Below, piece after piece: positions 10,701-35,011 of a DNA stretch of 64,000 bases. This stretch comes from Alphaproteobacteria bacterium (GTDB lineage: Bacteria > Pseudomonadota > Alphaproteobacteria > RF32 > CAG-239): the NCBI GenBank assembly GCA_017528205.1, contig JAFXPE010000004.1, positions 15,079 to 79,078 of the forward strand, in the 5' to 3' direction. Every line of letters begins with the position of its first letter. The first letter of the stretch is position 1. Below the pieces are notes generated by a model that ran no database searches, was not told the DNA's origin, and saw nothing but the letters and a program-made list of their open reading frames with translations. The position numbers were made by a program, and so were the translations under genes.

Positions 10701-13700
10701 GCATTATCCATATTTTGCGGAACATCTCCGGCATCTTGCTGCTTTTGCTTTACTCCTCCCGAAAATGCAGCGGCGCCTTCAATATCAACTTTCTGATTAT
10801 AAGTAGTGGCATTAACGGCCAAATTTGTTGCCTCAATGTCAGAATTTTCTATGCTTGCTCTGACATTTCGGTCAATTGAGGTTGTGTTTACACTTGCGCC
10901 AACGGCTATGCCTGAAGAACTTTGTTCGCCGTCTTCAACCTCTTCTTTTTGTTGCGCCAAGGAACCCTGAACAATTATATTGGTGATTTCATCTTTAGCT
11001 TCTCTTGGATAGGTTATTGCGGGATCAACTTGCTGTTCTTTTTCCTCCGGAGTTAACTCTCTTTGTTGTTTCCACTTTATCTCATCGGTTTTATCATCTC
11101 TTTTGAGGTTTCCACCGGTTGTTCTAATGGTTGCTTTTCCGGCATTTACTTCAATATTATCGGCAACAACCGTATGGTTGTCTTTAATATTTGATATCTT
11201 GGCAATGGTATCTCCGCTGATTTTTTGAATATGAATAGAGCCGTCAACCCCGATTTTTTCCGATTTACCGCCGGTTATAATGATGTTCATATACGACTGC
11301 TCGGTTGCACTGTCAACGTTTATATTGCCCTCTTCGGCTTTAACCGTTGAGTTATCAATCATGGCTGTTGCATGATTGGTATAGTTATCAAACACAAAAT
11401 TGGCTCCGATACCGGCTTTGCCGCCCTCAACAGTCGGCTCATATTCCCAATCTTGTTGCCCCGGAAGTTTATAGTTGAGTTTTTTTATTAAAATATCAAC
11501 GAGTCCGGCGCCGTTATATCCGATAACCGAATTAACCGCATTAACAACAACATCGCCGTCTACCGTGATATCGGAATTGTTTTGAATGGCCGCTATGGTA
11601 TTGGTATTAACCTCGTTATACACCACCGCCGCCGAAGCCGATGCGGTGCCGCCAACCGAATTTGTTTGGGCAAGGTTATTAAAGAAACCCGCCATTTTGA
11701 ATTTCGGTTTCAGTCCGGAATAACTTGCTATAATATTTTGTTCGGCTAATCCGGATACTTCAAAAACAGGTGCTGTATCATCGGCTTTCGGTGTTGCCGG
11801 AGAAACGCTCCACTTTCCGTTAGCTTCGGAAGCAAATCTGCCGCCCACAAAAAAGCTGTCCATCCCCATAATCTTGAAAGGAAACCGCATTCCGAAAGTA
11901 AGACTTCCGACATTCATCGGCAGTTCGGTGGTTGCGTCGACCGTAACATTTTCCGCCTCAATTTTTGACTTATCGATAATCGCTTTTGTGGTATTGTTTT
12001 GTTCACTTAAAATAAGGGCAACCGAAACGCCGAACTTGGCCTCGCCTTGCGTATCCGATGTAGCGGTATTGGTAAGCAAATCAACCGCATTCGCTCTGAT
12101 GATTACATCACCGTCTGCCTTAACTTTAGAATTTTCAATGGTTGCGGTTGTATTATTATTGGTATTGTTGTGAACAACGGCACCGCCGAGTTCAAGCGCT
12201 GCATTGTCGCCTTCTTTGCCAACAACAGGTGTTTTGCCTTTTATTTTGTTGAATATATTAAGTTTGAAGAATTTACCTTGCAATTCCTTTAATTTTTTAT
12301 TCATTGCGGCATCAAAGGTTTTCGGTTTTTGCACCATCATATCAAGAACGCTGCCGTCGGGGGCGTTTTCGGTTTTATGCAAACTTTGCGCCAGAACGGT
12401 CGTATCTTCCGCGGTTGTAATTTCGCTGTCTTTTATACGAGCGGTTACGTTATTATTTGAACGATTTAATACAACGCCGGCCGAAGATGCACTGTTGGCG
12501 GCATCATCAGGTTTATTCGGGTCTTTTTCGCCGGCAACTGCTTCTATGGAAATTTCCGCGTAACTGTCGGATAAATTTGTGGCAAACACGCTCAAATTGT
12601 CAGCCTCAACCGTTGATTTTATGATTGATGCCTCGGTATCGGTTTTAACCGTATTGTTTAAGAACATCAAAAAGAAACCTTCTTCCAGCTTTATCGAAAA
12701 AAGGCTGTCCGAGGTGATAACCGTTGAATTTTCGTTTGTGGAAACGGCGGTTACATCAATATCGCCGTTAACAGCGTTCAAAACAGAATCTTTGACGATT
12801 GCTTTTGACACCGTTTCGGTGCCAACCGCGTAAATACCGACCGGCAATATAAAGGCCAGCAATCTGTTATTGGCATCTAAACTTGATGAAGCCTCGGTTG
12901 ATATTTCAATATTTTTAGCAGCATCTCCAACGGCATTAATGGTGGAACCTTCAACATTAACAATCGCCGAACTTTTGGCTCCCTCAAAATGTTTATAAAT
13001 CTCAGAACTGAAATATTCTGCAAAATAAGAATCTCCGCTGAATATGTAATCAATTATCGTCGGGGTTAAAAAGTTTGCATTTTCGCTGGTTTCACTTGAC
13101 GCTTCAGCATGAATGAAAACGGATAAATCAGGATTTTCCGCATCAGACGCGGTTGCTTTCAGGGCATTTATAATTGAATACCTTACATTTACTTCAGCTT
13201 CGGCTTTACCGGCCACTCCCCAAAGCGATGTTACCGGAGGGATATCGGAATCCGGCGATAAAACAAGATCTTCCAGAGTGTTGATAATAAATTCAACATC
13301 ATCAACCGGATTGGCGGCATCAAAATCCTTTTTCTGTGTGGCTGTTGCAACCAAAGAAACCGTATCTCCCGTTATATTGGAATTTACAACATTAACGCTG
13401 GCTTTTGCCAAATCCACTTTCTGTTGTCTGTCCACCTCTGAGTTTGCGGAAATATCAATTTCATTGGCAGCAATATCGGCCTGATTAATGTCCACTTTGG
13501 TTGTTAATTGTTTGTCATTTCCCGAATCAAAGCCATATCTTTTATTGGCTACAATCTTTATCTTTCCGCCTTCCAAGCTGAAACCGTCGGCATCGGTAAT
13601 ATTATTTGCTACCAAACTGTCAAAAACTTGTTTGGCTTGCTGCTGTGTCATAACCTTTTTTGGGTTCTTCACGCCGGCAACAATTCCGGCTCTGGAGCCG

Positions 13701-14356
13701 TATTCTCCGGCGACTGCAACATCTTTACCGTAAAGTTCCACATCTCCTTTGGCCATAATTTTACCTTTTACGGTAATGACGCCTTCCGAATTTTTCAATA
13801 GCTCATTATATTTTTCGGCTCCGTGTTCATAGTCAGACAGATGATAGGATAAATCGCCGTCATAAGCGTGCTTTAAATCGTTATATTTACCCAGTGTTGG
13901 TGTAGCCATTGTCAGCGAGCCGACGTTCAAAACGCCCGAAGCTCCGACCACAATGCCGTTTGGCGAAACAAAAATCGCATGCCCGTTATAAAAATTGTTG
14001 CCCTTAACCGTGTTGACAATACCGTTAATATTAACCTGATTGTCTACCATATTTACAAATTTATTATAGCCCTGATCAAATTTTAAGTTTGCCACATCGC
14101 CGTTATCCAGAGTAAAATCCGTATACTGTCTGAAACCCGTGTTACCGGAAACTTTCGCCGCATCAATATTATAAACCCCGTTATTGCCCGAAACTCCGGT
14201 AATGTTTGTGGCAAACACCGGGGTAACATCTAAAAACATCATACTGTATGCCGTTATAAACGACACAATCTTGCGAAACAATGACGGCTGTTTAAACACA
14301 ATTTCCTGCGATTTTTTAATATGGATTTTCTTTAAACGTTTAGTGGCTTTAGACAT
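1739..14356 (-). CDS. Giant two-partner-secretion exoprotein (TpsA / filamentous-hemagglutinin-like adhesin), 4205 aa
   Basis: The N-terminus has a signal-like segment and a TPS secretion domain: N-x-x-G-x-x-x-N-I... then ...FVSPNGIVVGASGVLNVGSL, which is the NPNG-type motif. Thousands of residues of Gly/Asn/Ser/Thr/Val-rich beta-helical repeats follow. There is an acidic D/E plus K/N low-complexity insert mid-protein and a distinct ~90-aa C-terminal domain. Confidence 0.85.
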   Translation of the reverse strand: MSKATKRLKKIHIKKSQEIVFKQPSLFRKIVSFITAYSMMFLDVTPVFATNITGVSGNNGVYNIDAAKVSGNTGFRQYTDFTLDNGDVANLKFDQGYNKFVNMVDNQVNINGIVNTVKGNNFYNGHAIFVSPNGIVVGASGVLNVGSLTMATPTLGKYNDLKHAYDGDLSYHLSDYEHGAEKYNELLKNSEGVITVKGKIMAKGDVELYGKDVAVAGEYGSRAGIVAGVKNPKKVMTQQQAKQVFDSLVANNITDADGFSLEGGKIKIVANKRYGFDSGNDKQLTTKVDINQADIAANEIDISANSEVDRQQKVDLAKASVNVVNSNITGDTVSLVATATQKKDFDAANPVDDVEFIINTLEDLVLSPDSDIPPVTSLWGVAGKAEAEVNVRYSIINALKATASDAENPDLSVFIHAEASSETSENANFLTPTIIDYIFSGDSYFAEYFSSEIYKHFEGAKSSAIVNVEGSTINAVGDAAKNIEISTEASSSLDANNRLLAFILPVGIYAVGTETVSKAIVKDSVLNAVNGDIDVTAVSTNENSTVITSDSLFSIKLEEGFFLMFLNNTVKTDTEASIIKSTVEADNLSVFATNLSDSYAEISIEAVAGEKDPNKPDDAANSASSAGVVLNRSNNNVTARIKDSEITTAEDTTVLAQSLHKTENAPDGSVLDMMVQKPKTFDAAMNKKLKELQGKFFKLNIFNKIKGKTPVVGKEGDNAALELGGAVVHNNTNNNTTATIENSKVKADGDVIIRANAVDLLTNTATSDTQGEAKFGVSVALILSEQNNTTKAIIDKSKIEAENVTVDATTELPMNVGSLTFGMRFPFKIMGMDSFFVGGRFASEANGKWSVSPATPKADDTAPVFEVSGLAEQNIIASYSGLKPKFKMAGFFNNLAQTNSVGGTASASAAVVYNEVNTNTIAAIQNNSDITVDGDVVVNAVNSVIGYNGAGLVDILIKKLNYKLPGQQDWEYEPTVEGGKAGIGANFVFDNYTNHATAMIDNSTVKAEEGNINVDSATEQSYMNIIITGGKSEKIGVDGSIHIQKISGDTIAKISNIKDNHTVVADNIEVNAGKATIRTTGGNLKRDDKTDEIKWKQQRELTPEEKEQQVDPAITYPREAKDEITNIIVQGSLAQQKEEVEDGEQSSSGIAVGASVNTTSIDRNVRASIENSDIEATNLAVNATTYNQKVDIEGAAAFSGGVKQKQQDAGDVPQNMDNAQDKADNKSVDNSISEAPKDDDDDESVDDETYFRELLKKKKNNNNEDDDDDSIIDKILDQFSLSVAGAVDVTQDDTKVEASVNDSELTIGKDLEINAVRGVKNILLGGAVAKSNKNGAGAAVAYNNQSGSVKSLINNSDIEFADSNSQLVLNADNKNWLLNISIGAGASVNSDEENKGFQSAVGGSLNINTLEPEIVAAIENSSIGTDDYAKNVDVDIKAKNKVDVYNIAGGGAYLSGNGSNGVGAGAAVNYNNIKNNISAYIANSTLENINNLSVLADADNNMNDFAIAGSLVTGAETGWAFDGSADINYVHDTVKAKIMGSTITAKKDITVKANSNSNNLDAAGTIDILTTGSGAGVNGDVVINLFANDVTAEIGDSYKVGANLVPVTDQQTDILRAKDINVAATSTEKVNNILAGAAVSTGGSYLMAAANVNVNLVDNAVKAYVSGNFGIGRSTNFINGLNVAAYDETTIYTRGATVSAAASQEAATVIAGSVNVDKLTKNVEAKIIDADVNARGDVTATAASVNSLGGTKNDNNQYSRDDVTSKEYREKLLHKDTSGLYDGLQMKNGVALDQDSDFVNWNMFFDVAGGSNIAVAGAGIGKVIANFVTAEISNSAIKADNLYVLADDYSIKNIIAGTISGSLKGAAGLSVLYTKDKSTTSALIGNGSELDILRNLTLDAANKKDNHQILITGSGAIKGSINANIAINNVEDKVFAVIDNQTKNKEIYAGNINLNANEDINAAHIVVSGGGASNMVLDVNPIVNTYDATVEAAVKKANLKDAAIALKAQSKIDSLDVSAGVAGVAKGFAGVGVAIKNDYTGNIKSYIDNAVIDTKQNIDIDANSVINANNWVVGGSAAAQGASITVNALLNNVDTTLEAGIKNSEIENADVISINTNKDKTDSFDNNAIAAALAGQGASAIVNVIKNDFTNSVTSYVDNTKSAEIGSLEVIANSDRRTNNINFGLIVTGQGAGLAANALVNDINSTTRSYVDTKSKTLNVERNLDVKSNDTAAARNSVVMGSLAGLGGTVGLNINLYNANNLVKSEILSATAGQVNAGSVNMNSELTNALDNTQVDLSLGLAAVPIDVQVIKIGQKTNTYSKAEQVSDVKKYLNTAFSMIPQGLPTPTTPSNNLQTGAISSVNGNIKTALDTNINAKSRIRGLAKQNGKDVLTDELDLNSFTLVGALGSASVGVRDVQIANNTIAEIKGGKVESTDGDVALKAESASKVKMTNMRAEVSGLQVSGGSDIYENSSETLAQIRDATVNAHSIGVNSKSKSHATIDTTHIAGAIGSVVNVDLVEANDTNKTVSLITGNTNINAKDKLILHSTVDTDLQSLKLSVPIAGASLVSVMKNDATANTISKAIIENVNGAIKTNGLDIITDYDNMSVTARSNIVSVKAISVAEYNDSGAFMNAYFKSGIDSLDGLTLKNTGTTNIITARGNNQKDVSAYGRTHDVSVQLAGIYTGTFAHAETNATSATVLKVKNHTSNKLNLDQYLNSKAKADANGTKVTVAGVYAVAAAATDKSKMTLDVGGNNTIITPSHINLKHNATTEADLKAFNLGLLVAGSRIRVDSDMEADTFANIGGNFNVKDNNININIDTIRNAKLDKTSGTGGLINIADTGMSNTLKGKSILNLTNLKTDDKQDKNRFFINNRSINTYQVKTTDGSGGFINVSDTSATSTFNTSTETNIENADVNSQSDFSMLTQDTTAIEDNASNAGGGLFISYVGDKANNSYSSTAKINIKNSNIKAKDLKLQADSSVTAKDLKDISYTGDTGGFVAIGAINVTNNITNTSEINIQNSALEATHNAVLEAITGSYFKQKIENEADGFVSVAKGTSNLNVTNNNKITIDNKSTILANNELEIDFNSSNTLVSRVVSDVVNIGGEPVAKSYLNLTINNTLENSGTLQAGNLMDINFMNSSTNTLTQFAQAVSRAAIATTAEDGKLTRTINNKLDNKANADITSGKDIDINYSNGIGETNSVIYWVTKSGWGVITDSGQSSKYDLSSKHNLNNNGKITAAVNNSKYMKINRDGSVDKTTLKGFHDGDYILNDGAIIDGAKIKEQKLSEIDIELENVNGTINEYENTIANYNTLVAKLNQQKADAEATLNELTAFIENGAVLLESKTGNSGIYAGISAFDLKMQKDMGCVRQTNTDPGYAGKITQAEYNTLMQDYTTALNNNPNLTMAEFLNASDYGFSNAQKNNIVKGYNDVKSRLSITLHGFAKYIGKDGITYLAALNPTGEGAAQSCKNMLDLNSKIEDIANQIKSIQYIKANGTALLEDLRDERAKLTAEYNAIWETPADEYSYSGEDYSLVFNDIRINPNGAEINVHGLTNANITGNGVFDIAKSGLQIDNYSTRSLVFNDININTETANSSLIINDKEQTEFANKPQAISGQKANEYFYGSSSIWKQNNERPSFDSLPTTGVHFTVSNTKFVGTTINNYYDNNHPLADTLDIPNSTIASDITINGDINTGVLNILNESGNIAIQSSNIDTGNLNLFATNGQIDIETHNDENNAKFTLNAGSKIFAADGLNITADEVDIKSGSNIQTGYSLRGIKITDNMLKEENLIVDPTTGEKNLLDLGGNRLSPNLNDGVIKGNIKAIYKNGQIYVYNLPELEADNGIKIVANKGTVKGVMTVSTGPQTIEINNETDKPLIVGDIANTSIDGAYSVEGGATSKANLTTQKAIKAKTDIISEGKVALNGKIVNGIDAKIGTPSEDGELTVKAKNGIDIAKHQTYDAITAGGLIDIANTQNGALNIYGNITNKKGNTNLYGSDGISLFGKIHSVDGDVSMTAREGDLLLAKGSQIHIDKGNLSLNQQDVFGNLIMAGQIILRDGNLTTYSLGNETNNGLIFGREFMDENDLSDLIPANSNEPEVDYALNNNMGYGYDVTGDKDLKSSVKILRLHREGATIVNENHWKVGDKMEFSIAFDGVDVVAKCKVIKAENGIAQVMFLDLPRSVATKITERYMNKGLFHQWASN

Positions 14357-14653: not shown

Positions 14654-15589
14654 ATGAAAATAATCAAAGACTTTTTTATTAAATACATGGCGCTGATTGT
14701 GCTGGTTATCGCCTTGGTGTCCCTTTTTGCCCCACAGAGCGCTTTATGGATTTCGACCTCGTGGATAAATTATCTGCTGATGGTGGTGATGTTCGGCATG
14801 GGCCTGACCTTAAAGCCGGAAAGCTTTGTTTTGGTTTTCAAGCGCCCGAAGGATATCCTTTGCGGCATTTTTGCTCAATTTACGATTATGCCGCTGCTGG
14901 CTTTTGGCTTAAGTCGCCTGTTCGGGCTTGATGCCGCCCTGACCGCCGGTGTGATTTTGGTCGGAACCTGTCCGGGCGGAACGGCCAGCAATGTGATTAC
15001 CTACTTTTCCAAGGGCGACATTGCGCTTTCGGTTTCCATGACCAGCGTGAACACCCTGCTCGCCCCGCTCTTGACGCCGCTGGTGACTTATTTGCTGCTC
15101 AATACAACCGTTGAAGTGAACATGGCGAGTATGCTGTTGGCGATAGTCAATGTGATTTTAATCCCGATTGTGCTGGGTTTTGTTATCAATCGTTTCTTTG
15201 CGACCGCAACGCAAAAAATGGTGGATTTGTTGCCGGTGATTTCAGTGGTGGCGATTTGTATGATTGTGGCAACTGTGGTGGCGCACAATGCCGAAAAAAT
15301 CTACACTTGCGGATTTTTGGTTTTGAGCGTGGTCGTGTTGCATAACCTTTTGGGCTATTTATGCGGCTTTACGCTCGGGAAGTTGCTCAAAATGGAACCG
15401 GCGAAAGTTAAGGCGTTTTCTATTGAAATCGGCATGCAGAACTCCGGATTGGCCACGAGTTTGGCCGCCACCTCATTTCCGACACTCGCCATGGCCACCG
15501 TACCGGGAGCGATTTTCTCGGTATGGCATAACATTTCCGGCGCAATTTTGGCCGAAATCTACCGACATTGGCACACTGAGGAGAAATAA
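14654..15589 (+). CDS. Bile acid:sodium symporter (BASS/SBF) family transporter
   Basis: A polytopic membrane protein with the BASS-family signature region (...GTCPGGTASNVITYFSKGDIALSVSMTSVNTLLAPLLTPL...). The start was moved to the internal ATG at 14654, which is preceded by an agaaagagg RBS. Confidence 0.7.
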   Translation: MKIIKDFFIKYMALIVLVIALVSLFAPQSALWISTSWINYLLMVVMFGMGLTLKPESFVLVFKRPKDILCGIFAQFTIMPLLAFGLSRLFGLDAALTAGVILVGTCPGGTASNVITYFSKGDIALSVSMTSVNTLLAPLLTPLVTYLLLNTTVEVNMASMLLAIVNVILIPIVLGFVINRFFATATQKMVDLLPVISVVAICMIVATVVAHNAEKIYTCGFLVLSVVVLHNLLGYLCGFTLGKLLKMEPAKVKAFSIEIGMQNSGLATSLAATSFPTLAMATVPGAIFSVWHNISGAILAEIYRHWHTEEK

Positions 15590-16030
15590 ATGAAAAAGGC
15601 TCTGTTAATCATCGATGCGCAGAAAGCGGCGGTTGTTAAGCCGGAAATTGTGCGAAACATTGAAAAGTTGCAGTATGAATATGACGTGGTCTATGTCTCG
15701 AAGTTTACCAACACCGGCTCGCCGTTGCTAGAGATAATGGATTGGGCGGGTTATGATGACGAAACGCTCGCTTTTGAGCCAAAAAAAGATGCGATTGTGT
15801 TCACCAAGACCGGCTATACCTCATATTTGCCGGAGATGAAGGCGTTTGATGAAATTCACCTTTGCGGATTTGATACCGAGGCCTGCGTTTATAAAACGGC
15901 GTTGGACTTGGTGGAGATCGGGGTGCGACCTATTGTCTTAAAGGATTATTGCTATAGCTCCGACGAACAAATGCACGCCATAGGCCTCAAGATATTGGAG
16001 AAAAATATCGGGAAGAAGAATATGATATAG
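15590..16030 (+). CDS. Isochorismatase-family cysteine hydrolase (short form)
   Basis: It begins MKKALLIIDAQ... and has the C-terminal ...HLCGFDTEACVYKTALDLVEIGVRPIVLKD... typical of the isochorismatase/CSHase fold. It is start-stop coupled to the transporter gene. Confidence 0.6.
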   Translation: MKKALLIIDAQKAAVVKPEIVRNIEKLQYEYDVVYVSKFTNTGSPLLEIMDWAGYDDETLAFEPKKDAIVFTKTGYTSYLPEMKAFDEIHLCGFDTEACVYKTALDLVEIGVRPIVLKDYCYSSDEQMHAIGLKILEKNIGKKNMI

Positions 16031-16161
16031 TTTTTCTTTAACAATCTCAAATGTTAACATTTAAGATTTTCTCGTAAAAGCCGGGAAATACTATAAATAG
16101 CTAAAATGCCGCACACAAAGGAAATGCCCCTCAAAAGAAGCGTTTTTCCATTAAGCCTCTG

Positions 16162-16875
16162 TTAATAGAACTTCCATTCTATTGAAGCAGTAGCCCCATT
16201 GGAACCCCTAGCGGTCTTACCGCAGCTAGAAGTCGCACTAGCCACAGAAACTGGAAAGCCTTTCGCTCCGTCGTTAGGTCCTTGATTTTTGTTAACCATG
16301 CAGTGAATACTTCCCCAGACTTCACTTTGACCTGTACACGCATTTACATATTTATTCGCCACAGAAACGGCTTTAGTCCTCGCAGCAATACTCATAGCAA
16401 TCAAACCACCGCTTTTAGTTGTTCCTCCCCAGTCAACCAAAGCCAATGCAATACATGCCTCAATCGGAATATCATCAAACGATATGTGGAATGCATCTTT
16501 ACGTGTTGTTTTTTTATAATTTTTCTCAGATGCATTGAAACGAACAGGTGTACCCCATGGAGTTTGATATGTATTTGTTCCGTTACCATCCTTGCTGGCA
16601 TACATATCATCCGGTACAATATTGAATTTATCAATAATTTTACCACCTATTCCCGTACCATCACCCAATGAAGAATAGTCTTTTGAGTTTCTGAAAGCCC
16701 TACGCATATTGCTGACAACTAGAGTGATTTGTTCAATCGCCTTATTGGTCTTATACCTATTCATAGCTTTAGAATAACCGGCAAGACCACCAACGGACAG
16801 TACACCGATAATAGCCAAAACGCCAAGCATCTCAATCATCGAACGACCTTGTTCTAAATTTTTATTATTAATCAT
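16162..16875 (-). CDS. Type IV pilin-like protein (prepilin-type N-terminal cleavage/methylation domain)
   Basis: The N-terminus QGRSMIEMLGVLAIIGVLSVGG matches the class III signal (G/xxxE followed by a hydrophobic helix) of type IV pilins and pseudopilins. The Gly/Thr/Ser-rich C-terminal half has Cys residues. Confidence 0.7.
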   Translation of the reverse strand: MINNKNLEQGRSMIEMLGVLAIIGVLSVGGLAGYSKAMNRYKTNKAIEQITLVVSNMRRAFRNSKDYSSLGDGTGIGGKIIDKFNIVPDDMYASKDGNGTNTYQTPWGTPVRFNASEKNYKKTTRKDAFHISFDDIPIEACIALALVDWGGTTKSGGLIAMSIAARTKAVSVANKYVNACTGQSEVWGSIHCMVNKNQGPNDGAKGFPVSVASATSSCGKTARGSNGATASIEWKFY

Positions 16876-17004
16876 TGAAATTCTCCTGTATTGTCTTTCT
16901 ATACCTTAACTTTGACCGCGAAATATCTGTTATTTTGAATTTAGCAAGATTCCTACATCAAGTTAAATAACGATTTTACTTAGCGCTGTGGTGTCACTTT
17001 ACCG

Positions 17005-17019
17005 AAAAAAAAAAAAAAA
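17005..17019. repeat. A15 homopolymeric tract (T15 on the pilin-gene coding strand), ~130 nt upstream of the pilin-like gene start
   Basis: Counted directly: 15 consecutive A's at 17005-17019. Confidence 0.9.
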
Positions 17020-17194
17020 TCAAGAATAAAATAGTGTTTTTTGATAAAGGATAGCAAAATAATTAACGGCTCATTGCAATTCGGTAACGGTCGGAGTAAC
17101 GGCATGTTGCTAACCGGGGCATTATTTGGACCAGTTCTAAGCCGTCTGAATGCATTTACTTAAATGCCCGACTAGGAAATAAATGTAATTTAAA

Positions 17195-17234
17195 GAAAAA
17201 GGAACCCGCCGGCTTAGCCGGCGTTTCCTTTTGG
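17195..17234 (-). terminator. Bidirectional hairpin terminator (ggaacccgccggc-ttag-ccggcgtttcc flanked by A- and T-runs)
   Basis: A GC-rich stem-loop with an A-run 5' and a T-run 3'. It lies immediately downstream of the stop of the minus-strand GNAT operon. Confidence 0.5.
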
Positions 17235-17238
17235 ATGC

Positions 17239-17658
17239 TTATGCTCCCCACTGCATCAGGAATTCTTTTTCGCAGGTATCGGGGTCGGTTTGGTCGGAAA
17301 TGGCGATAAATCCGTTTTGCTTATAAAACTCGACAGCGGATGCGTTCTTTTCATAAACCATCAGTTGCAGACGATGCTTTTGCTCCTTTACAAAATCCAG
17401 CAATTGCCGCCCTACTCCCAACCCTCGACAATCTTGCCGCACAAAAATGCCGGCGATAAAGTCGTCTTGTAAGCCGATAAAGCCCTTTATTTGCCCGTCT
17501 TCATAAACATAAACCGTGCTTTGCGGCAGAATTTTCTTCACAAAATCATAGTTTTTCCGCCAATATTCGGGCGCTATAAAGTCATGCGCCTGCAAATTGC
17601 CCTCGAGCCATATCTGCATTACCGTATCTAAATCGGCTATTTTGAGCGGTCGTATCAT
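17239..17658 (-). CDS. GNAT-family N-acetyltransferase
   Basis: GNAT motif A region ...GIFVRQDCRGLGVGRQLLDFV...; 139 aa. Confidence 0.75.
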   Translation of the reverse strand: MIRPLKIADLDTVMQIWLEGNLQAHDFIAPEYWRKNYDFVKKILPQSTVYVYEDGQIKGFIGLQDDFIAGIFVRQDCRGLGVGRQLLDFVKEQKHRLQLMVYEKNASAVEFYKQNGFIAISDQTDPDTCEKEFLMQWGA

Positions 17659-18098
17659 TTTGCGAGCCTCATATACAACAGCGGAAAAGGTCTGCCCTGT
17701 TCGTCCGTTGCGGTGCGTTTATAGGTTTTAAAGCCGAGATGTTCGTAAAATCCGACGGCCTGAGGATTTTGCTCATTTACAGTCACTTCGCTGATTTGAT
17801 ACTTTTGGGCGCCGTATTCCATCAGTTTGCGCCCTATTCCCTGCCCGATATACTGCGGGTCCAAAAACAACATTTCCAACCGGTGCTGTTCCACCCCCAT
17901 AAAGCCGAGATAATCGCCGTTGTTCTGCGCCACCACGAGATGCGCCACTCCTTTCAGCGCCTGCGGCACATAATTCTCAATTTCCGCGATGTCTTTGCCG
18001 GTTAAAAATGTATGCGTTTTGCTAACCGACCGCCGCCACAGAGCAGTCAGTTCCTTAATTACATCAGAGTTGCGATCTATAACATCAACAATTTCCAT
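17655..18098 (-). CDS. GNAT-family N-acetyltransferase (second, distinct paralog)
   Basis: ...LFLDPQYIGQGIGRKLMEYG... acetyl-CoA binding motif. It overlaps the downstream GNAT gene by 4 nt. Confidence 0.75.
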   Translation of the reverse strand: MEIVDVIDRNSDVIKELTALWRRSVSKTHTFLTGKDIAEIENYVPQALKGVAHLVVAQNNGDYLGFMGVEQHRLEMLFLDPQYIGQGIGRKLMEYGAQKYQISEVTVNEQNPQAVGFYEHLGFKTYKRTATDEQGRPFPLLYMRLAK

Positions 18099-18739
18099 TA
18101 CTTACATCTCTTTTTAATTTCGGCTTTGACTTTTTTCAAATCGCCGGAGGTCAAAAGCGGTATCAGTTCGTTGATTTCCTCAACGCTTTTATCCCACCAT
18201 TTGAATTTCAGTAGCAACTGTATCAATTCGTCATCAAATCTTTTGCGCACCGGTTTTGCCGGATTTCCGACCACAATCGTATATGGCTCGACATTGCTGC
18301 CGACCACACTGTTGGCACCGATTATTGCCCCATCGCCGATATGCACGCCGGGCAGAATTGTCACGTTTTGCCCTATCCACACGTCATTGCCGACAATCGT
18401 ATCGCCCTTAAGGGGTAAATCGGTCTCAGCCGGCGGCTCTTGTTCAAAATCTTCCATAATATAAAACGGAAACGTGGAAACGGCATTCATCTGATGATTG
18501 GCGCCGTTCATCACAAACTCAACCCCTGCCCCGATTTGGCAGAATTTGCCGATAATCAGCTTGTCGCCGATAAAATCATAGTGATGAGTGACGTGCTTTG
18601 CAAAATCAACATCGGCAAAATAGCTAAAATCCCCGACTATAATGTTCGGATTTTTCAGCGTCGGCTTGATATAGGTTACCGTTTTGATATTCGACACCGG
18701 AAAAATTGCATTCGGGTTAGGTTTCGTTGCCTTTGTCAT
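18098..18739 (-). CDS. Hexapeptide-repeat xenobiotic acetyltransferase (XAT family; Vat/CatB-like)
   Basis: Left-handed beta-helix hexapeptide repeats with a Vat/CatB-like N-terminus (...IKPTLKNPNIIVGDFSYFAD...GAGVEFVMNGANHQMNAVSTFPF...). The start was set to the internal ATG (MTKATKP), which overlaps the stop of the upstream kinase gene. Confidence 0.7.
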   Translation of the reverse strand: MTKATKPNPNAIFPVSNIKTVTYIKPTLKNPNIIVGDFSYFADVDFAKHVTHHYDFIGDKLIIGKFCQIGAGVEFVMNGANHQMNAVSTFPFYIMEDFEQEPPAETDLPLKGDTIVGNDVWIGQNVTILPGVHIGDGAIIGANSVVGSNVEPYTIVVGNPAKPVRKRFDDELIQLLLKFKWWDKSVEEINELIPLLTSGDLKKVKAEIKKRCK

Positions 18740-19254
18740 CAGAATTCTCCTATATCCAAGTTGTATTCTTCCTCTATCAAATGATACGGCAGTCCATGCT
18801 TTTGGCACTGTTGCAAAATGTGCTCGTTATCCTTTAGAGCCATATCTTGCGTAAAATCGCCATCATCCAGCCGCTTTTCGATAACGTTGGCATGGTTTTT
18901 GATGTCCGCAAAGCGATTTAAAATATAGTTTTGGCTCATAATCAGGCAAATGTATTTGATTTCCGCCAGATAATTTTCGCTAAAATCCTGCCGCCAAGCA
19001 AACGGAATATAACAGCCCTCAACGATTAGATTTTGCTTGTTTTCGATGGCGGTTTTAATCATTTCACGCACAATCGGCCACAAATAGTCCGTCAGCTTAT
19101 CATCATCAAGAGCGGTTAAGGCGGTCTGCTTGCTGCGGATCAGCCCCATTTTCAGCAAATCCAACGACAAGAGCGGAAAGTGATACTTTTCCAGCATTTT
19201 TTGTGCCAGCAAAGTCTTTCCCGTATGCGATGCCCCTGTGATTAAAATTATCAT
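18739..19254 (-). CDS. P-loop NTPase / small-molecule kinase-like protein
   Basis: An N-terminal Walker A (MIILITGASHTGKTLL). Its size and architecture resemble CPT/gluconate-kinase-like small kinases. It is first in a 4-gene overlapping operon with the XAT and GNAT genes. Confidence 0.5.
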   Translation of the reverse strand: MIILITGASHTGKTLLAQKMLEKYHFPLLSLDLLKMGLIRSKQTALTALDDDKLTDYLWPIVREMIKTAIENKQNLIVEGCYIPFAWRQDFSENYLAEIKYICLIMSQNYILNRFADIKNHANVIEKRLDDGDFTQDMALKDNEHILQQCQKHGLPYHLIEEEYNLDIGEF

Positions 19255-19343
19255 AAACCCTCACTTGTTAAAAGCGAGAATAAAACGTTTTTGGTTAAAA
19301 AGCAATATTTTCAAACGCTTTGTTTTTATCATGTTTTTACACC

Positions 19344-19994
19344 TCAGCGACTGACAAATGCTACGATTTCTTTTTGCAAGAGGCGGAACACATTGGCCAC
19401 CAGATATCCGTCGGCAATTGCGTGATTTAAGCGAACGCTCACCGGCATAACCAGTCTGCCGTTTTCTTCGCGATATCGTCCCCAGTTCACGATGGGCGCA
19501 AAGAACAAATAGCCGTCCGGCAACTCAATATTCAACGAATCATACGAAAGCCACGAAATGTATGAGGCATCAAACCAATTCGGATGATTTTCCATATCCA
19601 ACCCGTAATCACGCGTTTGCTTTGCCGTCTCCATATCTTTCAGCGCGCCGGCATAAAACGTGTCATAGTCCTCGTAATATTGCGTGTAAACCGGCGTACA
19701 GGTTTCCGTATCTTCATGAAATACATATTGCGTGGGGTTGACCATATCATAGCAGATAAGCTCGCCCGTCTGCCAAAGATAGCCCATGCGATAATCTTCA
19801 CGCGAATTCATTACTTTGGCAAGGATATACAGAAAATTCAAATAGAATTTCGAACTCGTCCGCTTTGACCAGGCTGCAAGCTCGGTCACATCTATTCTGG
19901 CAGTCATAGAAGTGGAGCATTTGCAGTCTTCCGAAAAGTGACGAAACACACCCTTGCGATAATACGTTTCTTTATCAATGACCTTGTAGTTCAT
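19344..19994 (-). CDS. cat: Chloramphenicol O-acetyltransferase, classic (type A) CAT fold
   Basis: Colinear similarity to CAT_I along the whole protein, including the catalytic-His region ...SVRLNHAIADGYLV... (compare MAIQVHHAVCDGFHV) and ...LFFAPIVNWGRY...; 216 aa. Confidence 0.8.
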   Translation of the reverse strand: MNYKVIDKETYYRKGVFRHFSEDCKCSTSMTARIDVTELAAWSKRTSSKFYLNFLYILAKVMNSREDYRMGYLWQTGELICYDMVNPTQYVFHEDTETCTPVYTQYYEDYDTFYAGALKDMETAKQTRDYGLDMENHPNWFDASYISWLSYDSLNIELPDGYLFFAPIVNWGRYREENGRLVMPVSVRLNHAIADGYLVANVFRLLQKEIVAFVSR

Positions 19995-20110
19995 ATTTCA
20001 AAAAACTCCCGAATTTTTATTTTAACCGCAGATTACAGCAGACAATTCGGAATGTCCAGTATTTAATGACGGATTTACGCGGCATTTACGCCCTTCCCGC
20101 GTATATTTTT

Positions 20111-20467
20111 TCACTTCTCTTGTCGGCGTATCAAAATACCTTTCATATACGGAGTTCTGTTGTGTGTTTCATAAATAATCTTTTTTTCGTCTTCCGTACA
20201 ACCGAGCAATATTTTAATTTCGGAATCTTTTTTCAGCAAGTCAACAATGCACATAACGGCGTCAATTTGCTTTCCGCGGCTTCCCAACCACACGTCTATG
20301 CCGGCACCGTCCATTGAAGATGTATCTTTTAAATAACCGTAATCAACTCTGTATACAAAGTCGGGAAATTTCGGGTGTATCGTTCCCTTTGGACGATCAA
20401 TAATCACTTCCGATTTGCTTACCAATTCATCTAATGCTTTCCAAAATTCGCTATTATATTCATTCAT
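20111..20467 (-). CDS. Hypothetical protein (weak resemblance to the inorganic pyrophosphatase core: DYGY...DGAGIDVW)
   Basis: An ORF with reasonable coding character; no confident family assignment. Confidence 0.35.
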   Translation of the reverse strand: MNEYNSEFWKALDELVSKSEVIIDRPKGTIHPKFPDFVYRVDYGYLKDTSSMDGAGIDVWLGSRGKQIDAVMCIVDLLKKDSEIKILLGCTEDEKKIIYETHNRTPYMKGILIRRQEK

Positions 20468-20479
20468 TTCTGTATCTCC

Positions 20480-20668
20480 TTACACTCCCGTTTTCACAAT
20501 CCCGCGACCGTATTTGGCTTTGGCCTCTTTGGCACGAGAGATTATCCCCTTGTTGCCACCACCGGTCATCACGCATACGGGTTTGCCCTGCAATAAAGGA
20601 TTATCCTTCCGTTCGCACGAAACGAAAAAGCAATCACAATCCACCAATGCAATAATATGCTGCCGCAT
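20480..20668 (-). pseudogene. Remnant (first ~60 codons) of a Y-family DNA polymerase gene (DinB/UmuC-like)
   Basis: MRQHIIALVDCDCFFVSCERKDNPLLQGKPVCVMTGGGNKGIISRAKEAKAKYG matches the conserved N-terminus of the DinB/UmuC palm domain (IALVDCDNFF.S.E...L.GKPV.V.SNNDG.VIARS.EAK). The ORF stops after 62 aa, and no continuation is present downstream. Confidence 0.6.
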
Positions 20669-21109
20669 TTTGCCCTCTCAATGTTCTATTTCTGTTCTAT
20701 TTGCAACACGAATTTTTATTAAGTCAATCACAATGTTATAATTGTTCCACAGGCAATTTGAAAGATAAATTTTCGTGTGGTGGATTCCTGCTAATATTCT
20801 TTTCAACAATAAATTTCATTATAATGTGCTACCGGATGGCCGGTCGCATTTTGCCACAAAAAATAAGATTTTTCATTTTATATATAGGTCTATTTTTATA
20901 TTTTTCTTATTTTAAACTTGATAATCATCCTGTTTTATGTTAATAGATATATTACCAAAATAGTATATTTTTAAATAGATTGCAACGGTTTTAACACTTC
21001 TGCAATTTAATTATGCGTCCGCGTATAATAAGAAATATATGATTTTTGTGCGATTTTAACAACAAAATATGGAGATAAAAGATGAAAAAATTAAAAATAG
21101 GAGGCCTAA

Positions 21110-22267
21110 ATGGATATTTGGGACGAAATTAAAAAACTGTCCGGCTACCAATCCGGTCACGGCGGAGTGGATAGTTACGGTGTTGACCACAGCGGATTTT
21201 CAACGCGTGATGAGTTGGAATATCAAAGCGCACGATTAGCCAGAGAAAATCAACTGGCGGAAGGTTTTGCTAAGCAAGGAATTGCCGAAGAAAACTATCC
21301 GCAGTTCGGCACAAACTTTTGGGAAGGAACGCCTGAAAATAACTACGGCTTCGGCACTTCAAACATTAAGCAAAATATCGAAAATGTTACAAATCAGTTG
21401 AATAACAGCGGATTTGGTGGCGGAGTGAATAATAGCGGATTTAACGCCAGCGCAAATAACGGACAAGTCACTACAAATTCCGACTATACGGTCAACACCG
21501 AAAGTCTAGTCGGCAAACCGAGCAGTTATTTTCAGAATAATAGTGCAAGCAATACTTTGGGAGGCAATGCAAGTGGAGCATTGAATCAAAATGGTAGCGG
21601 TAACAGTATCAACTATGATAATTATGCAATGCGACAGGACTTAGAAAATAATATCAAACGAGAACAGGAAAGAGCGCAGCGACAAAGCTTAATACCTCCT
21701 TCTAACAATTCTCAGATAACGCCTATTCCTTCAGGAAAACCACTAACTTCGCAAGAAGCGTCCTATATGTTCACACCGACACACCCTGATTATGGCCAAA
21801 TAGGTTCATTGGAATTTGATGGGCAAAATTTGGTTTGGTTGCAAAATGGTCAACCGGTAAAGTATTATCCGGCACAATCCGGTCATAATGATTATCAAAG
21901 CGCTAAATATACCAATGTCTCTAATGAGGGGCCAATACCAGAAGGTGATTATCAGCTTAATCAAGGAACCGGACAGGATTATGAGGAAAGTTTATGGTAT
22001 AAAATCAATAGGAACATGTGGCCTCGTCCTATCAGAAAGAATTGGACGGTCACGCCTGCTGGTTGGGGACATCAACGTATTCCTATCCAACCATTACCAA
22101 GCACGAACACTTTAGGGCGGCATAGTATGTATGTTCATGGAGGAGATAACGGATTTGGCTCTGCGGGCTGTATAGATTTAGAAAGAGGTATGCCTAATTT
22201 CTACGACGACTGGCTAAAATATAACGGGACTTTACCTCTTAAAGTCAAATACAAGAAAGGTTGGTAA
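21110..22267 (+). CDS. DUF2778/Tlde1-like L,D-transpeptidase-fold protein (putative peptidoglycan-targeting toxin) with a Gly/Asn/Ser-rich N-terminal region
   Basis: The C-terminal ~130 aa contain ...GPIPEGDYQL... and the catalytic-type motif ...YVHGGDNGFGSAGCIDLE... (H-G-G...G-S-x-G-C) of the YkuD/Tlde1 family. The N-terminal 250 aa are low complexity. There is no signal peptide. A strong RBS (aggagg) precedes the start. Confidence 0.55.
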   Translation: MDIWDEIKKLSGYQSGHGGVDSYGVDHSGFSTRDELEYQSARLARENQLAEGFAKQGIAEENYPQFGTNFWEGTPENNYGFGTSNIKQNIENVTNQLNNSGFGGGVNNSGFNASANNGQVTTNSDYTVNTESLVGKPSSYFQNNSASNTLGGNASGALNQNGSGNSINYDNYAMRQDLENNIKREQERAQRQSLIPPSNNSQITPIPSGKPLTSQEASYMFTPTHPDYGQIGSLEFDGQNLVWLQNGQPVKYYPAQSGHNDYQSAKYTNVSNEGPIPEGDYQLNQGTGQDYEESLWYKINRNMWPRPIRKNWTVTPAGWGHQRIPIQPLPSTNTLGRHSMYVHGGDNGFGSAGCIDLERGMPNFYDDWLKYNGTLPLKVKYKKGW

Positions 22268-22279
22268 TTAAAATAATAG

Positions 22280-22315
22280 GCAAGAGTTGAAATATACTCT
22301 TGCTCTTTTTTATTT
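22280..22315 (+). terminator. Rho-independent terminator (gcaagagt-loop-actcttgc followed by a T-run)
   Basis: An 8-bp stem and 8-nt loop followed by tcttttttattt, immediately after the toxin-like gene stop. Confidence 0.5.
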
Positions 22316-22357
22316 ACACTGTATTATATTCTTAATTCAACTTAAAATGGTGCAATT

Positions 22358-22714
22358 ATGCTTAAAAATTTACTTCTGATGATGAAAAATAATAAAGCAA
22401 GAATATTTCCGTTTGCGGTCAGTTTATACCTATATGCCTTGTATTCTCGGTGTATATATCTGTTGGGTAAAGATATAATAAAGCGAATTAATGAGGATTA
22501 TTACAGTTATCTGTTGCATAAATGCCGGTGGTTGTGGGCAAACGAAAATGTTCGCAACGAAGCGGCTCTCGTTGTGTTGTTATCGGCCGTGCTTTTGCTT
22601 TCTTTTTATTTGCTCTATCGCAGAAGTTATTATTTTTACGCCGTAATATTGGCGCCGATATATATCTTTTTGTTTGTTACGGTTTGCAGCGCAATACTAG
22701 TACGTTGGTTTTAA
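22358..22714 (+). CDS. Small polytopic membrane protein (candidate immunity protein)
   Basis: 118 aa with 3-4 hydrophobic helices and no recognisable family. It lies directly downstream of the Tlde1-like gene. Confidence 0.4.
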   Translation: MLKNLLLMMKNNKARIFPFAVSLYLYALYSRCIYLLGKDIIKRINEDYYSYLLHKCRWLWANENVRNEAALVVLLSAVLLLSFYLLYRRSYYFYAVILAPIYIFLFVTVCSAILVRWF

Positions 22715-22723
22715 GGAGAAAAA

Positions 22724-23080
22724 ATGTCGGTCAAAGATTTATGTATTAAAATCATCAGAAACCGCAACAGAATAGCGGCTCATTTGTGTTTTTGGGGAAT
22801 GCTGTGTTTCAATTTATTATGTTTGAGTTTGACAATTTATACTATGTTCACCTATGACGGCGGAACGGAAGATGCGAAAGTTTATTATGAAATTCGTGAT
22901 ATAAATATGGCACACGATACATTTTCCGGTTTTATGTTGCGGGAATATTTATTAGGATTATTGTTTGCATTTCCTTTGCTTATATCCTTGCTGTTTGTGC
23001 GGAAAATTACATTAAATGCGGTTATGTTACAACTCTTGCCGATTTTAGTTATGCTCGGTCAAATAGTGTTTTTTGATTAA
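22724..23080 (+). CDS. Small polytopic membrane protein (candidate immunity protein)
   Basis: 118 aa and hydrophobic. An RBS (aggag) precedes the start. It is unrelated in sequence to the preceding one. Confidence 0.4.
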   Translation: MSVKDLCIKIIRNRNRIAAHLCFWGMLCFNLLCLSLTIYTMFTYDGGTEDAKVYYEIRDINMAHDTFSGFMLREYLLGLLFAFPLLISLLFVRKITLNAVMLQLLPILVMLGQIVFFD

Positions 23081-23104
23081 ATTCATAAACAACGGAGTTG
23101 TAAA

Positions 23105-23677
23105 ATGGTAACAAAAGATAGAATATATATGACATTTAAATATCTCGGGTGTTTTCTTGCATGCAATATTTTATTGTGGGCCGTGATATGGCTCATTGCC
23201 GAATTAGACCAAGACAAACTTGAGCTGATTGATTGTTTTGCGTTTGAATACGGATACATTACAAAAACACTCAGTTATCAAAGTTATTTGCAAGGAGCTT
23301 GCACCTACCCTCAAATATGCACATGTGCCGTAAATGCCGAATGGATATTGTTTTTCTATATTTGGGCTTTGCCGATTTTTGTTTTTTATGAAGTTTTTCG
23401 GCGCAAAATCATTCTGCAACAATATCAATACTTGTGCGTTTTGGGCGAAATTGCTTTTGGGGTGGTTATATGTTTTTTATGCCAAGACAATGCACCCTTT
23501 TTATGGTTTCCGCTCGGTAATACTTACAAAATCATCGCACCGATGGCGATTATTATGCTTGCATTACACAGCTTGCCGCCCAAAGTGCTTAAAGTGCTGT
23601 CTATAATTATCGGCACGATTTACGGGTTATATTTTGGGTTTTGTATAGCAATGATTATTCTTAACTTTTTCCATTAA
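23105..23677 (+). CDS. Polytopic membrane protein, 190 aa
   Basis: Multiple predicted TM helices with Cys/aromatic-rich loops; no family assignable. Confidence 0.45.
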   Translation: MVTKDRIYMTFKYLGCFLACNILLWAVIWLIAELDQDKLELIDCFAFEYGYITKTLSYQSYLQGACTYPQICTCAVNAEWILFFYIWALPIFVFYEVFRRKIILQQYQYLCVLGEIAFGVVICFLCQDNAPFLWFPLGNTYKIIAPMAIIMLALHSLPPKVLKVLSIIIGTIYGLYFGFCIAMIILNFFH

Positions 23678-23706
23678 AAAAGGAGGTCTTGTGGCCTCCT
23701 TTTTTT
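23676..23706. terminator. Bidirectional terminator (A5-aggaggtc-ttgt-ggcctcct-T6)
   Basis: A stem-loop flanked by A5 and T6. It sits between convergent genes 23105..23677 (+) and 23771..24223 (-). Confidence 0.55.
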
Positions 23707-23770
23707 AACGAATATTACAACCAAATCTATCCGATATATTTTGAACATTCACGAAGTATTTGGCATATCC

Positions 23771-34830: not shown

Positions 34831-34963
34831 ATGCTAATATTTCAATAAAATTTAAATAATGTTCATTGAAATATTATACAAGATATAGAATACTCTTCTT
34901 CAACCTTATTATTCCTTTCATCTCACTTTATACAAGAACTAATTTTACACTTATGACAAATAT

Positions 34964-35011
34964 TGGCATTTATTTCGAAATATTATAAACCCGCCGGGTT
35001 TCCGTGGCGGT
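34964..35011. repeat. 48-bp direct repeat, copy 2
   Basis: tggcatttatttcgaaatattataaacccgccgggtttccgtggcggt; see copy 1. Confidence 0.85.

Follow-up and report, generated by a model that had tools for sequence, protein, structure and literature searches.

Gene content and family relations of the array

The subject of this analysis is a compact array of five genes in the window, by which we mean the whole 64,000-nucleotide stretch of contig JAFXPE010000004.1 (assembly GCA_017528205.1, an alphaproteobacterial genome). At 17239-19994, five open reading frames (ORFs) lie head to tail on the minus strand and encode an enzyme with the fold of chloramphenicol acetyltransferase (CAT), a small P-loop kinase, a Vat-like hexapeptide xenobiotic O-acetyltransferase (XAT) and two GNAT-family N-acetyltransferases, here called GNAT-A and GNAT-B. 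A model reading the sequence alone had picked out the array (the original prediction) as a multi-drug inactivation island whose enzymes might modify one substrate sequentially. Its inventory is borne out by the ORFs, the Pfam and NCBIfam scans and the PDB matches: the five-gene composition, the fold and family assignments and the coordinates are correct, and acetyltransferases of three folds (CAT, left-handed beta-helix and GNAT) do sit on one strand. Given the strong family matches of all five proteins and the purifying selection throughout the array (ratios of nonsynonymous to synonymous substitution, dN/dS, of 0.04-0.21), the array is far beyond chance. The features of the locus are:

19344-19994, minus strand: CAT-fold O-acetyltransferase of 'CatA-like family 3', 216 aa (Pfam CAT)
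19261-19332, minus strand: 23-codon mini-ORF in the gap between the CAT and kinase genes, a deletion scar (alignment to L094, a relative's contig)
18739-19254, minus strand: small P-loop kinase of an uncharacterised family, 171 aa (Walker A motif GASHTGKT)
18098-18739, minus strand: Vat-like hexapeptide XAT, 213 aa (Vat matches)
17655-18098, minus strand: GNAT-A, YjaB-like N-acetyltransferase, 147 aa (PRK10514 below cutoff, PDB 2kcw)
17239-17658, minus strand: GNAT-B, YiaC-like N-acetyltransferase, 139 aa (PRK10562 below cutoff, alignment to YiaC)
17207-17223, strand not assigned: GC-rich hairpin with T-tract directly after GNAT-B, terminator-like
20111-20467, minus strand: InPase-like gene, 118 aa, upstream and co-directional (weak Pfam InPase match)
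20480-20668, minus strand: dinB remnant of 62 codons with an in-frame internal deletion (Pfam IMS, residues 9-53)
20683-20697, minus strand: GAAC-N7-GAAC direct repeat, 15 nt before the ATG of the dinB remnant

The overlap of four of the genes was confirmed by measurement (1 nt for kinase and XAT, 1 nt for XAT and GNAT-A, 4 nt for GNAT-A and GNAT-B), and a spacer of 89 nt lies between the CAT and kinase genes. A mechanical ORF list began the XAT gene at a GTG at 18808; we take the ATG at 18739 (18098-18739) as its start, since the resulting 213-aa form is the one deposited at NCBI and is present in all homologues. The earlier description of the array as one operon stands in part: the layout is tight, co-directional and operon-like, and the hairpin at 17207-17223 is its sole convincing terminator-like site, but the CAT gene is set off by its 89-nt spacer. 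Apart from one weak hairpin within the XAT gene, none was predicted before 17223 on the strand of the seven co-directional genes. Judging from this arrangement, a single transcript, running to the hairpin at 17207-17223, probably covers all five genes. A sigma-70 promoter scan scored no higher than the shuffled expectation and no promoter was assigned, a Rfam scan of 15000-24000 for leader RNAs and riboswitches gave no match, and the PADLOC anti-phage defence models matched none of eight proteins. The order kinase-XAT-GNAT-GNAT behind a cat gene corresponds to no described cassette, as had been noted. In the deposited metagenome-assembled genome (MAG) of 'Alphaproteobacteria bacterium', the proteins MBR3675646-51 carry the names GNAT, GNAT, CatB-related O-acetyltransferase, adenylate kinase, chloramphenicol acetyltransferase and inorganic pyrophosphatase.

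The CAT-fold enzyme matches Pfam CAT over its full length (residues 1-207 to a profile of 205 positions, E 9e-45) and belongs to the NCBIfam family CatA_like_3 (NF040638; 424.7 bits against a cutoff of 275, residues 2-213 covering profile positions 1-212). With the type A CATs (CatA, CATIII) it shares the CAT trimer fold, the full-length Pfam CAT match and the catalytic His in the H-A-x-x-D-G motif, which aligns as NHAIADG with HHAVCDG of CATIII (3cla). The Ser, Asp and Arg of CATIII that support catalysis also have aligned equivalents in the window enzyme. It differs from CatA in falling below the cutoff of the true CatA model (NF000491, 170.5 bits against 270), in being placed by NCBI in 'CatA-like family 3' instead, and it is 33% identical to CatA3. 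Homologues with 81-86% identity occur in MAGs of Thermoguttaceae, Clostridia and Eubacteriaceae, and a CAT on the mobilizable Selenomonas ruminantium plasmid pSRC6 is 81% identical; by these comparisons, the family has clearly moved horizontally between phyla. The dN/dS of the gene is 0.04-0.09. We found no resistance data for CatA-like family 3 in the literature. A CatA-like gene of different source did not correlate with phenicol inhibition zones (PMC12102941), and functionally selected CATs from cow manure were described as a 'novel clade' (PMC3993861), to which no link from the window enzyme could be made. In two unrelated contexts the CatA-like gene has beside it a gene for a small Cupin_2 protein, located upstream in L094 (5004-5414) and downstream in L117 (6375-6710), which may be another recurrent partner.

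The kinase is the least familiar member of the array. Beyond its Walker A motif, GASHTGKT, it reached no Pfam family (the nearest, AAA_33, scored 25.7 bits against a cutoff of 27), no NCBIfam model came close, and neither the single sequence nor a 38-sequence profile found a significant sequence relative in the PDB. The name adenylate kinase given by NCBI is unsupported: no adenylate kinase model occurs among its NCBIfam and Pfam matches, its PDB sequence matches to adenylate kinases have E values of about 1 and cover the P-loop region only, and the structural likeness is generic (TM 0.45-0.56). Models for gluconokinase and CoaE were likewise not reached. The neighbouring CAT gene had prompted a comparison with chloramphenicol phosphotransferase (CPT), and kinship with it was rejected, as the match to Pfam CPT is not significant (15 bits, E 0.023, gathering score 22); no CPT structure appears among the PDB sequence matches or the best 50 structural matches. 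An AlphaFold2 model (pLDDT 90) has a generic nucleoside monophosphate (NMP)-kinase fold, for which Foldseek returned adenylate kinases, gluconokinases and unannotated 'putative kinases' in the PDB at TM 0.5-0.58 and nothing function-specific. On this model, the kinase would share with CPT, shikimate kinase and gluconokinase a P-loop NMP-kinase-like fold and a length of about 170 aa. These P-loop small-molecule kinases carry a substrate-activating Asp at the position after strand 2, and an invariant Asp stands there in this family (D32, in the conserved motif S-x-D-x-L-K-M-G). The family is compact: 1.84 billion representatives yielded 301 clusters of it at 50% identity (E <= 1e-30). It comes mostly from gut Clostridia, whose members are 60-69% identical to the window kinase; mean identity across Clostridia is 70%. 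Its members are annotated 'adenylate kinase' or 'AAA ATPase', and the window gene has a dN/dS of 0.13-0.20. This is a kinase family without a characterised relative, found in gut and rumen anaerobes.

The XAT has much closer kin. It aligns over its full length with VatA (E 5e-65) and VatD (E 6e-57) in the PDB, is 56.5% identical to Vat(E) and 61.5% identical to a plasmid homologue annotated as Vat family, and shares with the Vat family (VatA, VatD, Vat(E)) the left-handed beta-helix hexapeptide fold and the catalytic His82. It narrowly misses the NCBIfam model Vat_ABCDEFH (NF000311, 281.7 bits against a cutoff of 300) and lies well below the CatB model (NF000490, 179.2 bits against 350); the NCBI pipeline names it only 'CatB-related O-acetyltransferase'. 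When compared with VatD, for which residue roles are available from a fragment-screening preprint (10.1101/2025.01.31.635826), the XAT keeps His82, Trp121, Tyr37, Leu108 and Pro109, and carries, at five further positions lining the acetyl/antibiotic site, the changes Asn14 to Ile, Asp39 to Ala, Tyr52 to His, Ser68 to Gln and Lys124 to Gln. At the VatD positions Asp39, Tyr52, Ser68 and Lys124, VatA is the same as or similar to VatD and unlike the XAT. The window gene also differs from the Vat family in being chromosomal and translationally coupled to a P-loop kinase. The known partners of vat genes are, to our knowledge, vgb, vga or erm genes, and not a kinase.

The two GNATs are nearest to chromosomal proteins of Escherichia coli. 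GNAT-A matches PDB 2kcw (E. coli YjaB) with E 8e-25 and keeps the equivalent of Tyr117 in GFY(E/K)..GF, scoring 128.5 bits against the cutoff of 134 for PRK10514; GNAT-B aligns end to end with E. coli YiaC at 31% identity (E 2e-25), keeps the equivalents of Tyr115 and Phe70, and scores 117.9 bits against 125 for PRK10562. Tandem duplication was rejected as the origin of the pair, as the two proteins are only 24% identical. Both agree in length and in the catalytic Tyr with YjaB and YiaC, which are, like YafP, protein lysine acetyltransferases, and the position of the array next to dinB echoes the E. coli dinB-yafP arrangement. Unlike in E. coli, where yiaC lies near 3.71 Mb and yjaB sits away from it, the two genes are adjacent with their 4-nt overlap and sometimes form a single gene: in three metagenome contigs (proteins P0406, P0412 and P0413), GNAT-A and GNAT-B are fused in frame into a 286-aa protein, with ...LLYMRIAK followed at the junction by MIRPLK.... 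One extra A in the A-run of the ATGA overlap (17655-17660) would account for the junction. The fusion may be phase-like variation of natural origin, or else a homopolymer sequencing error made in all three cases. YjaB and YiaC acetylate many proteins on overexpression, and their catalytic tyrosines were mutated in that work (Christensen et al. 2018, PMC6199490).

Synteny and the origin of the compact spacing

Contigs of relatives, recovered through kinase homology, place the array in a conserved chromosomal position. In L091 (kinase 94% identical), a methyltransferase/DCD/ornithine-decarboxylase/DUF2147 block is collinear with the window at 95.7% DNA identity, and is followed in the order DUF2147 ... 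intact dinB - InPase-like - CAT - kinase - XAT - truncated GNAT-A - GNAT-B; the truncation of GNAT-A is a separate deletion of about 150 bp. In L094 (GCA_918234285.1; kinase 91% identical), both flanks are shared with the window, with DUF2147 on one side and isochorismatase, SBF transporter and a 4205-aa giant protein (95.3% identity) on the other, and the order is DUF2147 - cupin - CAT - about 3.8 kb of extra genes - kinase - XAT - GNAT-A - ... - isochorismatase - SBF - giant protein, with GNAT-B absent. In L002-L005 (kinase 89% identical), which have neither CAT nor GNAT-A, BioG - kinase - XAT - GNAT-B are followed by three small genes and then by the same isochorismatase gene. The kinase-XAT core thus occupies one chromosomal locus between the same flanks in the relatives examined, and CAT, GNAT-A and GNAT-B are each missing or broken somewhere.

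This distribution bears directly on the claim that the array was recently acquired. The synteny comparison argues against it, as the core lies at the same locus in L091, L094 and L002, which largely bears out an objection anticipated in the original prediction, that of a syntenic position kept across the lineage. Composition argues against it too: the five genes have a GC content of 0.42-0.48, and of 0.51-0.55 at third codon positions (GC3), inside the window background of 0.43+/-0.04 and 0.45+/-0.08. Compared with L094, the array genes have a synonymous divergence (dS) of 0.27-0.51 and the flanking genes one of 0.30-1.16, and no integrase, transposase or insertion sequence was found among the ORFs examined between 14000 and 24000. 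What favours an island is that the CAT family is mobile and the kinase family mostly Firmicute, both of which suggest a foreign ultimate origin, that the region is variable and rearranged, and that a 20-nt direct repeat (AAATAGTGTTTTTTGAT[A/T]AA, 19/20 identical) at 17029-17048 and 23061-23080 encloses 6.0 kb that include the array, the dinB remnant and a putative toxin cassette, where shuffled sequences expect 0.04 matches. Neither L091 nor L094 has the repeat, and only the same-strain contig L001 shares it. It was considered as an att-like boundary and not adopted, being strain-specific, with one copy inside a coding end and no recombinase. By these sequence comparisons, the array consists of genes that are foreign in ultimate origin but have long resided in the lineage.

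How the genes came to lie so close together can be read in part from the spacer between CAT and kinase. It contains a mini-ORF of 23 codons (19332-19261, MIKTKRLKILLFNQ...). From its ribosome-binding site through its ninth codon, this mini-ORF can be aligned to the beginning of a 151-aa Acetyltransf_3 GNAT (MIKTKRLQIYS...) of L094; the homology stops about 28 nt into that ORF. This GNAT belongs to the L094 insert between CAT and kinase, together with a hydrolase, a flavodoxin-like protein and an Fe-S protein. Since the mini-ORF is the start of a lost GNAT, CAT and kinase became neighbours by deletion of the intervening genes. On this alignment, a deletion of about 3.8 kb, which would have removed another GNAT and several redox and hydrolase genes, placed CAT beside the kinase.

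A second deletion is seen upstream. The original prediction had taken a Y-family polymerase remnant about 500 bp away as a sign of past recombination or acquisition. The remnant is present, 486 bp upstream of the CAT start, but its reading as a footprint of acquisition is not supported: it consists of residues 1-51 and 371-385 of the intact 385-aa DinB of L091, joined by a 966-bp in-frame deletion at a short repeat, a local event in this strain. The InPase-like gene between the remnant and CAT (Pfam InPase 23 bits against a cutoff of 26.8; named inorganic pyrophosphatase by NCBI) lies 12 nt from the stop codon of the remnant and is conserved beside CAT in L091. The tight spacing of the array reflects reductive decay in a variable region, not the design of a pathway. 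Sequential modification of one substrate, as originally suggested, is not supported as a five-step pathway by these comparisons, in which CAT, GNAT-A and GNAT-B are each absent or broken in relatives and CAT owes its place to the deletion.

Kinase-XAT pairing, kinase fusions and neighbouring genes

The association of the kinase with the XAT extends well beyond this lineage, and looks different from its two sides. From the kinase side, 80 species-level loci were surveyed; 77 have no adjacent XAT, and the remaining three have a close homologue (L011, L033) or a distant one (L076). A YafP-like GNAT lies directly upstream in five of these 80 loci and a MerR-type regulator nearby in seven, and close kinase relatives at 80% identity are encoded alone. 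The XAT side was surveyed in 80 metagenomic loci with an XAT 68-92% identical to that of the window, 74 of which have at least 100 nt downstream. Here the kinase is the commonest neighbour of the XAT subfamily, and in 13 of the 74 its start overlaps the XAT stop codon by 1 nt, in the order opposite to that of the window. The same XAT-then-kinase order is found in Ruminococcus sp. UBA4350, and the 1-nt overlap in kinase-then-XAT order is kept in the window, L091, L094, L002 and L011. Among the reverse-order pairs, pairwise identity ranges over 50-80% for the kinases and 65-82% for the XATs, and the distances roughly co-vary. Since the paired genes are this divergent, the association must be old or repeatedly re-formed.

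Other members of the array recur around the XAT as well. CAT homologues (79-86% identical) adjoin it in L117, L123 and L143, the last with the order CAT-XAT-kinase, and a GNAT-A homologue adjoins it in L164, so that across these four loci CAT, XAT, kinase and GNAT homologues co-localise in varying orders. A Firmicute 'drawer' of the same kind is found in L052 (Eubacteriaceae bacterium, MGBC000141; 100-6600), with a VOC/glyoxalase-like gene, a topology-modulation-type P-loop gene, a GNAT, an XRE regulator, a CAT 83% identical to that of the window, a second CAT-like gene, a RimJ-type GNAT, an APH-like fragment and a kinase homologue; the family labels other than CAT and kinase were here read from the sequences, not from scans.

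The kinase domain is also found fused to other domains, with the reservation, applying to each fusion, that metagenomic gene calls can be chimeric. In Monoglobus pectinilyticus (L177:3001-3999, WP_320691166.1) it is fused to a YafP-like GNAT (hhalign probability 99.9%), in a gene that sits between fabF and rnc. In a representative library it is fused to four further GNATs and to APH, glyoxalase/bleomycin-resistance, Pyridox_ox_2, NUDIX and RyR domains; the longer proteins with a kinase domain are P0243, P0246, P0247, P0249, P0250, P0257, P0341, P0353 and P0365. The kinase domain is N-terminal in the fusions, and its C-terminal partners include three Pfam GNAT types plus the YafP-like type. By sequence, the kinase is found in a consistent trend among, and fused with, xenobiotic-modifying domains. 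The bifunctional AAC(6')-Ie/APH(2'')-Ia offers a precedent for the coupling of acetyltransferase and phosphotransferase, as the kinase here has acetyltransferases for neighbours and GNAT and APH domains as fusion partners. Unlike that enzyme, the kinase is P-loop NMP-kinase-like and not a protein-kinase-like APH, its main partner is a beta-helix XAT and not a GNAT, and aminoglycosides as substrates have no support for the window enzymes.

The surroundings of the array in the window add several observations of their own. On the plus strand, 21110-22267 encodes a 385-aa protein with a C-terminal YkuD/Tlde1-like L,D-transpeptidase domain (Pfam YkuD 28.7 bits, Tlde1_dom 27.8 bits), followed by small hydrophobic ORFs without a family at 22358-22714, 22724-23080 and 23105-23677 (all plus strand). 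From these predicted features, the YkuD-domain protein and the three hydrophobic ORFs look like a toxin/immunity cassette. The cassette differs from the equivalent L091 region, where the first ~320 bp of the toxin gene occurs twice, inverted, flanking the dinB-to-GNAT-B block (about 6588-7015 and 12114-12432). Directly downstream of the array, 16162-16875 (minus strand) encodes a type IV pilin-like protein (Pfam Bundlin 46 bits, N-terminal prepilin-type signal), at a position taken in relatives by unrelated genes (a 633-aa protein in L094, three small genes in L002). Beyond it, 1739-14356 (minus strand) is the giant 4205-aa ORF, which has repetitive beta-strand-like segments and an adhesin/haemagglutinin-like look and is about 95% identical in DNA in L094. 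Further away, a 425-aa ORF at 33553-34830 (minus strand) has a C-terminal hexapeptide acetyltransferase domain (serine O-acetyltransferase/EpsC-like, 75 bits, below cutoff) and overlaps the most AT-rich kilobase of the window (34001-35000, GC 0.287); judged by these matches, it may be a surface-polysaccharide O-acetyltransferase in a compositionally foreign patch.

Functional interpretation and significance

We consider it rather probable that the array is a vertically inherited, partly decaying chromosomal cluster whose enzymes carry out parallel and largely independent modifications of small molecules. The heterogeneity of the kinase partners, together with the dispensability of three of the five genes, speaks against a fixed pathway. 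In this model, the cluster would have been shaped by accretion and deletion within a variable part of the genome of a gut or rumen alphaproteobacterium, and would be made up of three units: (i) the coupled kinase and Vat-like XAT, (ii) the YjaB-like/YiaC-like GNAT pair, and (iii) a horizontally moving CatA-like gene. The XAT, through His82 and acetyl-CoA, would O-acetylate a hydroxyl on a streptogramin-A-like or related xenobiotic; the CAT-fold enzyme, through its conserved His, would O-acetylate a chloramphenicol-like alcohol; GNAT-A and GNAT-B would N-acetylate amines, on small molecules or protein lysines; and the kinase would transfer the gamma-phosphate of ATP to a hydroxyl of a small molecule. 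The comparisons themselves show the gene content, family relationships, conserved catalytic residues, synteny, purifying selection, deletion scar and recurrent kinase-XAT pairing; the substrates, the co-transcription of the genes and the independence of the activities are what we infer in this model.

Several findings weigh against this interpretation. None of the five proteins reaches a validated resistance-family cutoff, and the substrates named above are deduced from sequence kinship. The conserved 1-nt overlap and the divergent opposite-order pairs at 13 of 74 XAT loci suggest that the kinase and the XAT act together and not independently, and the kinase-GNAT fusions (at least five protein clusters), along with the GNAT-A/GNAT-B fusion, hint at coupled function. 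A functional link of at least the kinase and the XAT is plausible, because the pair recurs across divergent organisms and in both gene orders.

The kinase and the Vat-like XAT, possibly with the GNATs, could be a two-enzyme module whose target is a single compound or a pair of components from one natural mixture; this is the main alternative, and we consider it less likely. Such a module might doubly modify one antibiotic by phosphorylation and acetylation, as AAC(6')-Ie/APH(2'')-Ia does, or combine streptogramin A acetylation with a kinase for the partner compound. Conservation of the overlap in both orders, the co-varying divergence of the paired genes, the rank of the kinase as commonest XAT neighbour and the existence of kinase-GNAT fusions all speak for it. 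Against it stand the kinase-side survey, in which only 3 of 80 loci have an adjacent XAT and relatives at 80% identity have the kinase alone, and the heterogeneous fusion partners, which fit co-located independent detoxification better than one fixed pathway; moreover, no streptogramin or chloramphenicol kinase is known in the kinase family, whose similarity to CPT is not significant. A broader version of the proposal, that the family is a new class of xenobiotic or antibiotic phosphotransferase partnering acetyltransferases, above all Vat-like XATs, in a two-enzyme module, is possible but in our view doubtful.

Housekeeping functions are the next alternative, in which the GNATs would be lysine acetyltransferases, the kinase a metabolic or nucleotide kinase, and the CAT and XAT enzymes of endogenous metabolites. 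For the array as a whole we find this unlikely, least so for the GNATs. The likeness of GNAT-A and GNAT-B to YjaB and YiaC, with the catalytic Tyr kept, bears out part of an objection anticipated in the original prediction, namely that the GNATs might be housekeeping acetyltransferases and the kinase metabolic, and, together with the failure of every gene to attain a curated resistance-family cutoff, it counts against multi-drug inactivation as first proposed. The syntenic chromosomal position, the purifying selection, the high conservation of the kinase family and its NMP-kinase fold point the same way. However, CAT, GNAT-A and GNAT-B are each dispensable in some relative; CAT is 81-86% identical across at least four phyla and occurs on a mobilizable plasmid, a pattern expected of an accessory gene under selection; the XAT shares 56-61% identity with Vat enzymes, validated or annotated; and the kinase reaches no model for adenylate kinase, gluconokinase or CoaE and is fused to resistance-type domains.

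It is much less probable that the array is part of an SOS-linked operon for genotoxin detoxification, in which dinB and the acetyltransferases would be expressed from a LexA-controlled promoter, like E. coli dinB-yafN-yafO-yafP. The direct repeat GAACAGAAATAGAAC (20683-20697, minus strand) has the form GAAC-N7-GAAC, which we take to resemble the alphaproteobacterial LexA box, and both half-sites are kept in L091, with a variable spacer. The seven co-directional genes and the scarcity of hairpins between them would permit such a transcript. YafP falls in the same group of small GNATs as GNAT-A and GNAT-B, and YafP-like GNATs are found next to members of the kinase family or fused to them; in E. 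coli, YafP, a GNAT encoded in the dinB operon, modulates nitroaromatic genotoxicity (PMC3105422). On the other side, dinB adjoins the array only in the window and L091, its place being taken by a cupin gene in L094 and by BioG in L002, and it is destroyed in this strain. GAAC-N7-GAAC sites are no more frequent in the window than by chance (2 against 1.5 expected, the other copy at 58480-58494 lying inside the glyS ORF), and the intergenic gaps of 116 and 89 nt could hold promoters of their own. The recently acquired, mobile multi-drug resistance island of the original prediction is hardly credible against the syntenic core, the unremarkable composition and dS, the lack of mobility genes in the ORFs examined and the strain-specificity of the 20-nt repeat.

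As a resistance island the array would be ordinary, since its deposited genes carry generic names and chromosomal collections of acetyltransferase homologues are common in gut anaerobes. As a vertically inherited and decaying cluster, it is a clean example of how compact operons can arise by deletion and gene decay, and a caution against reading pathway logic from tight spacing. The main lead is the uncharacterised kinase family: its genes recur in coupling with those of Vat-like acetyltransferases, and its domain is joined in longer proteins to GNAT, APH, glyoxalase and Nim-type domains. If the kinase and the XAT do work as a pair, they would constitute a resistance or detoxification module invisible to resistance-gene databases, and, should the kinase prove to inactivate an antibiotic, the gut microbiomes of livestock and humans would harbour a resistance determinant that goes unseen in current databases.

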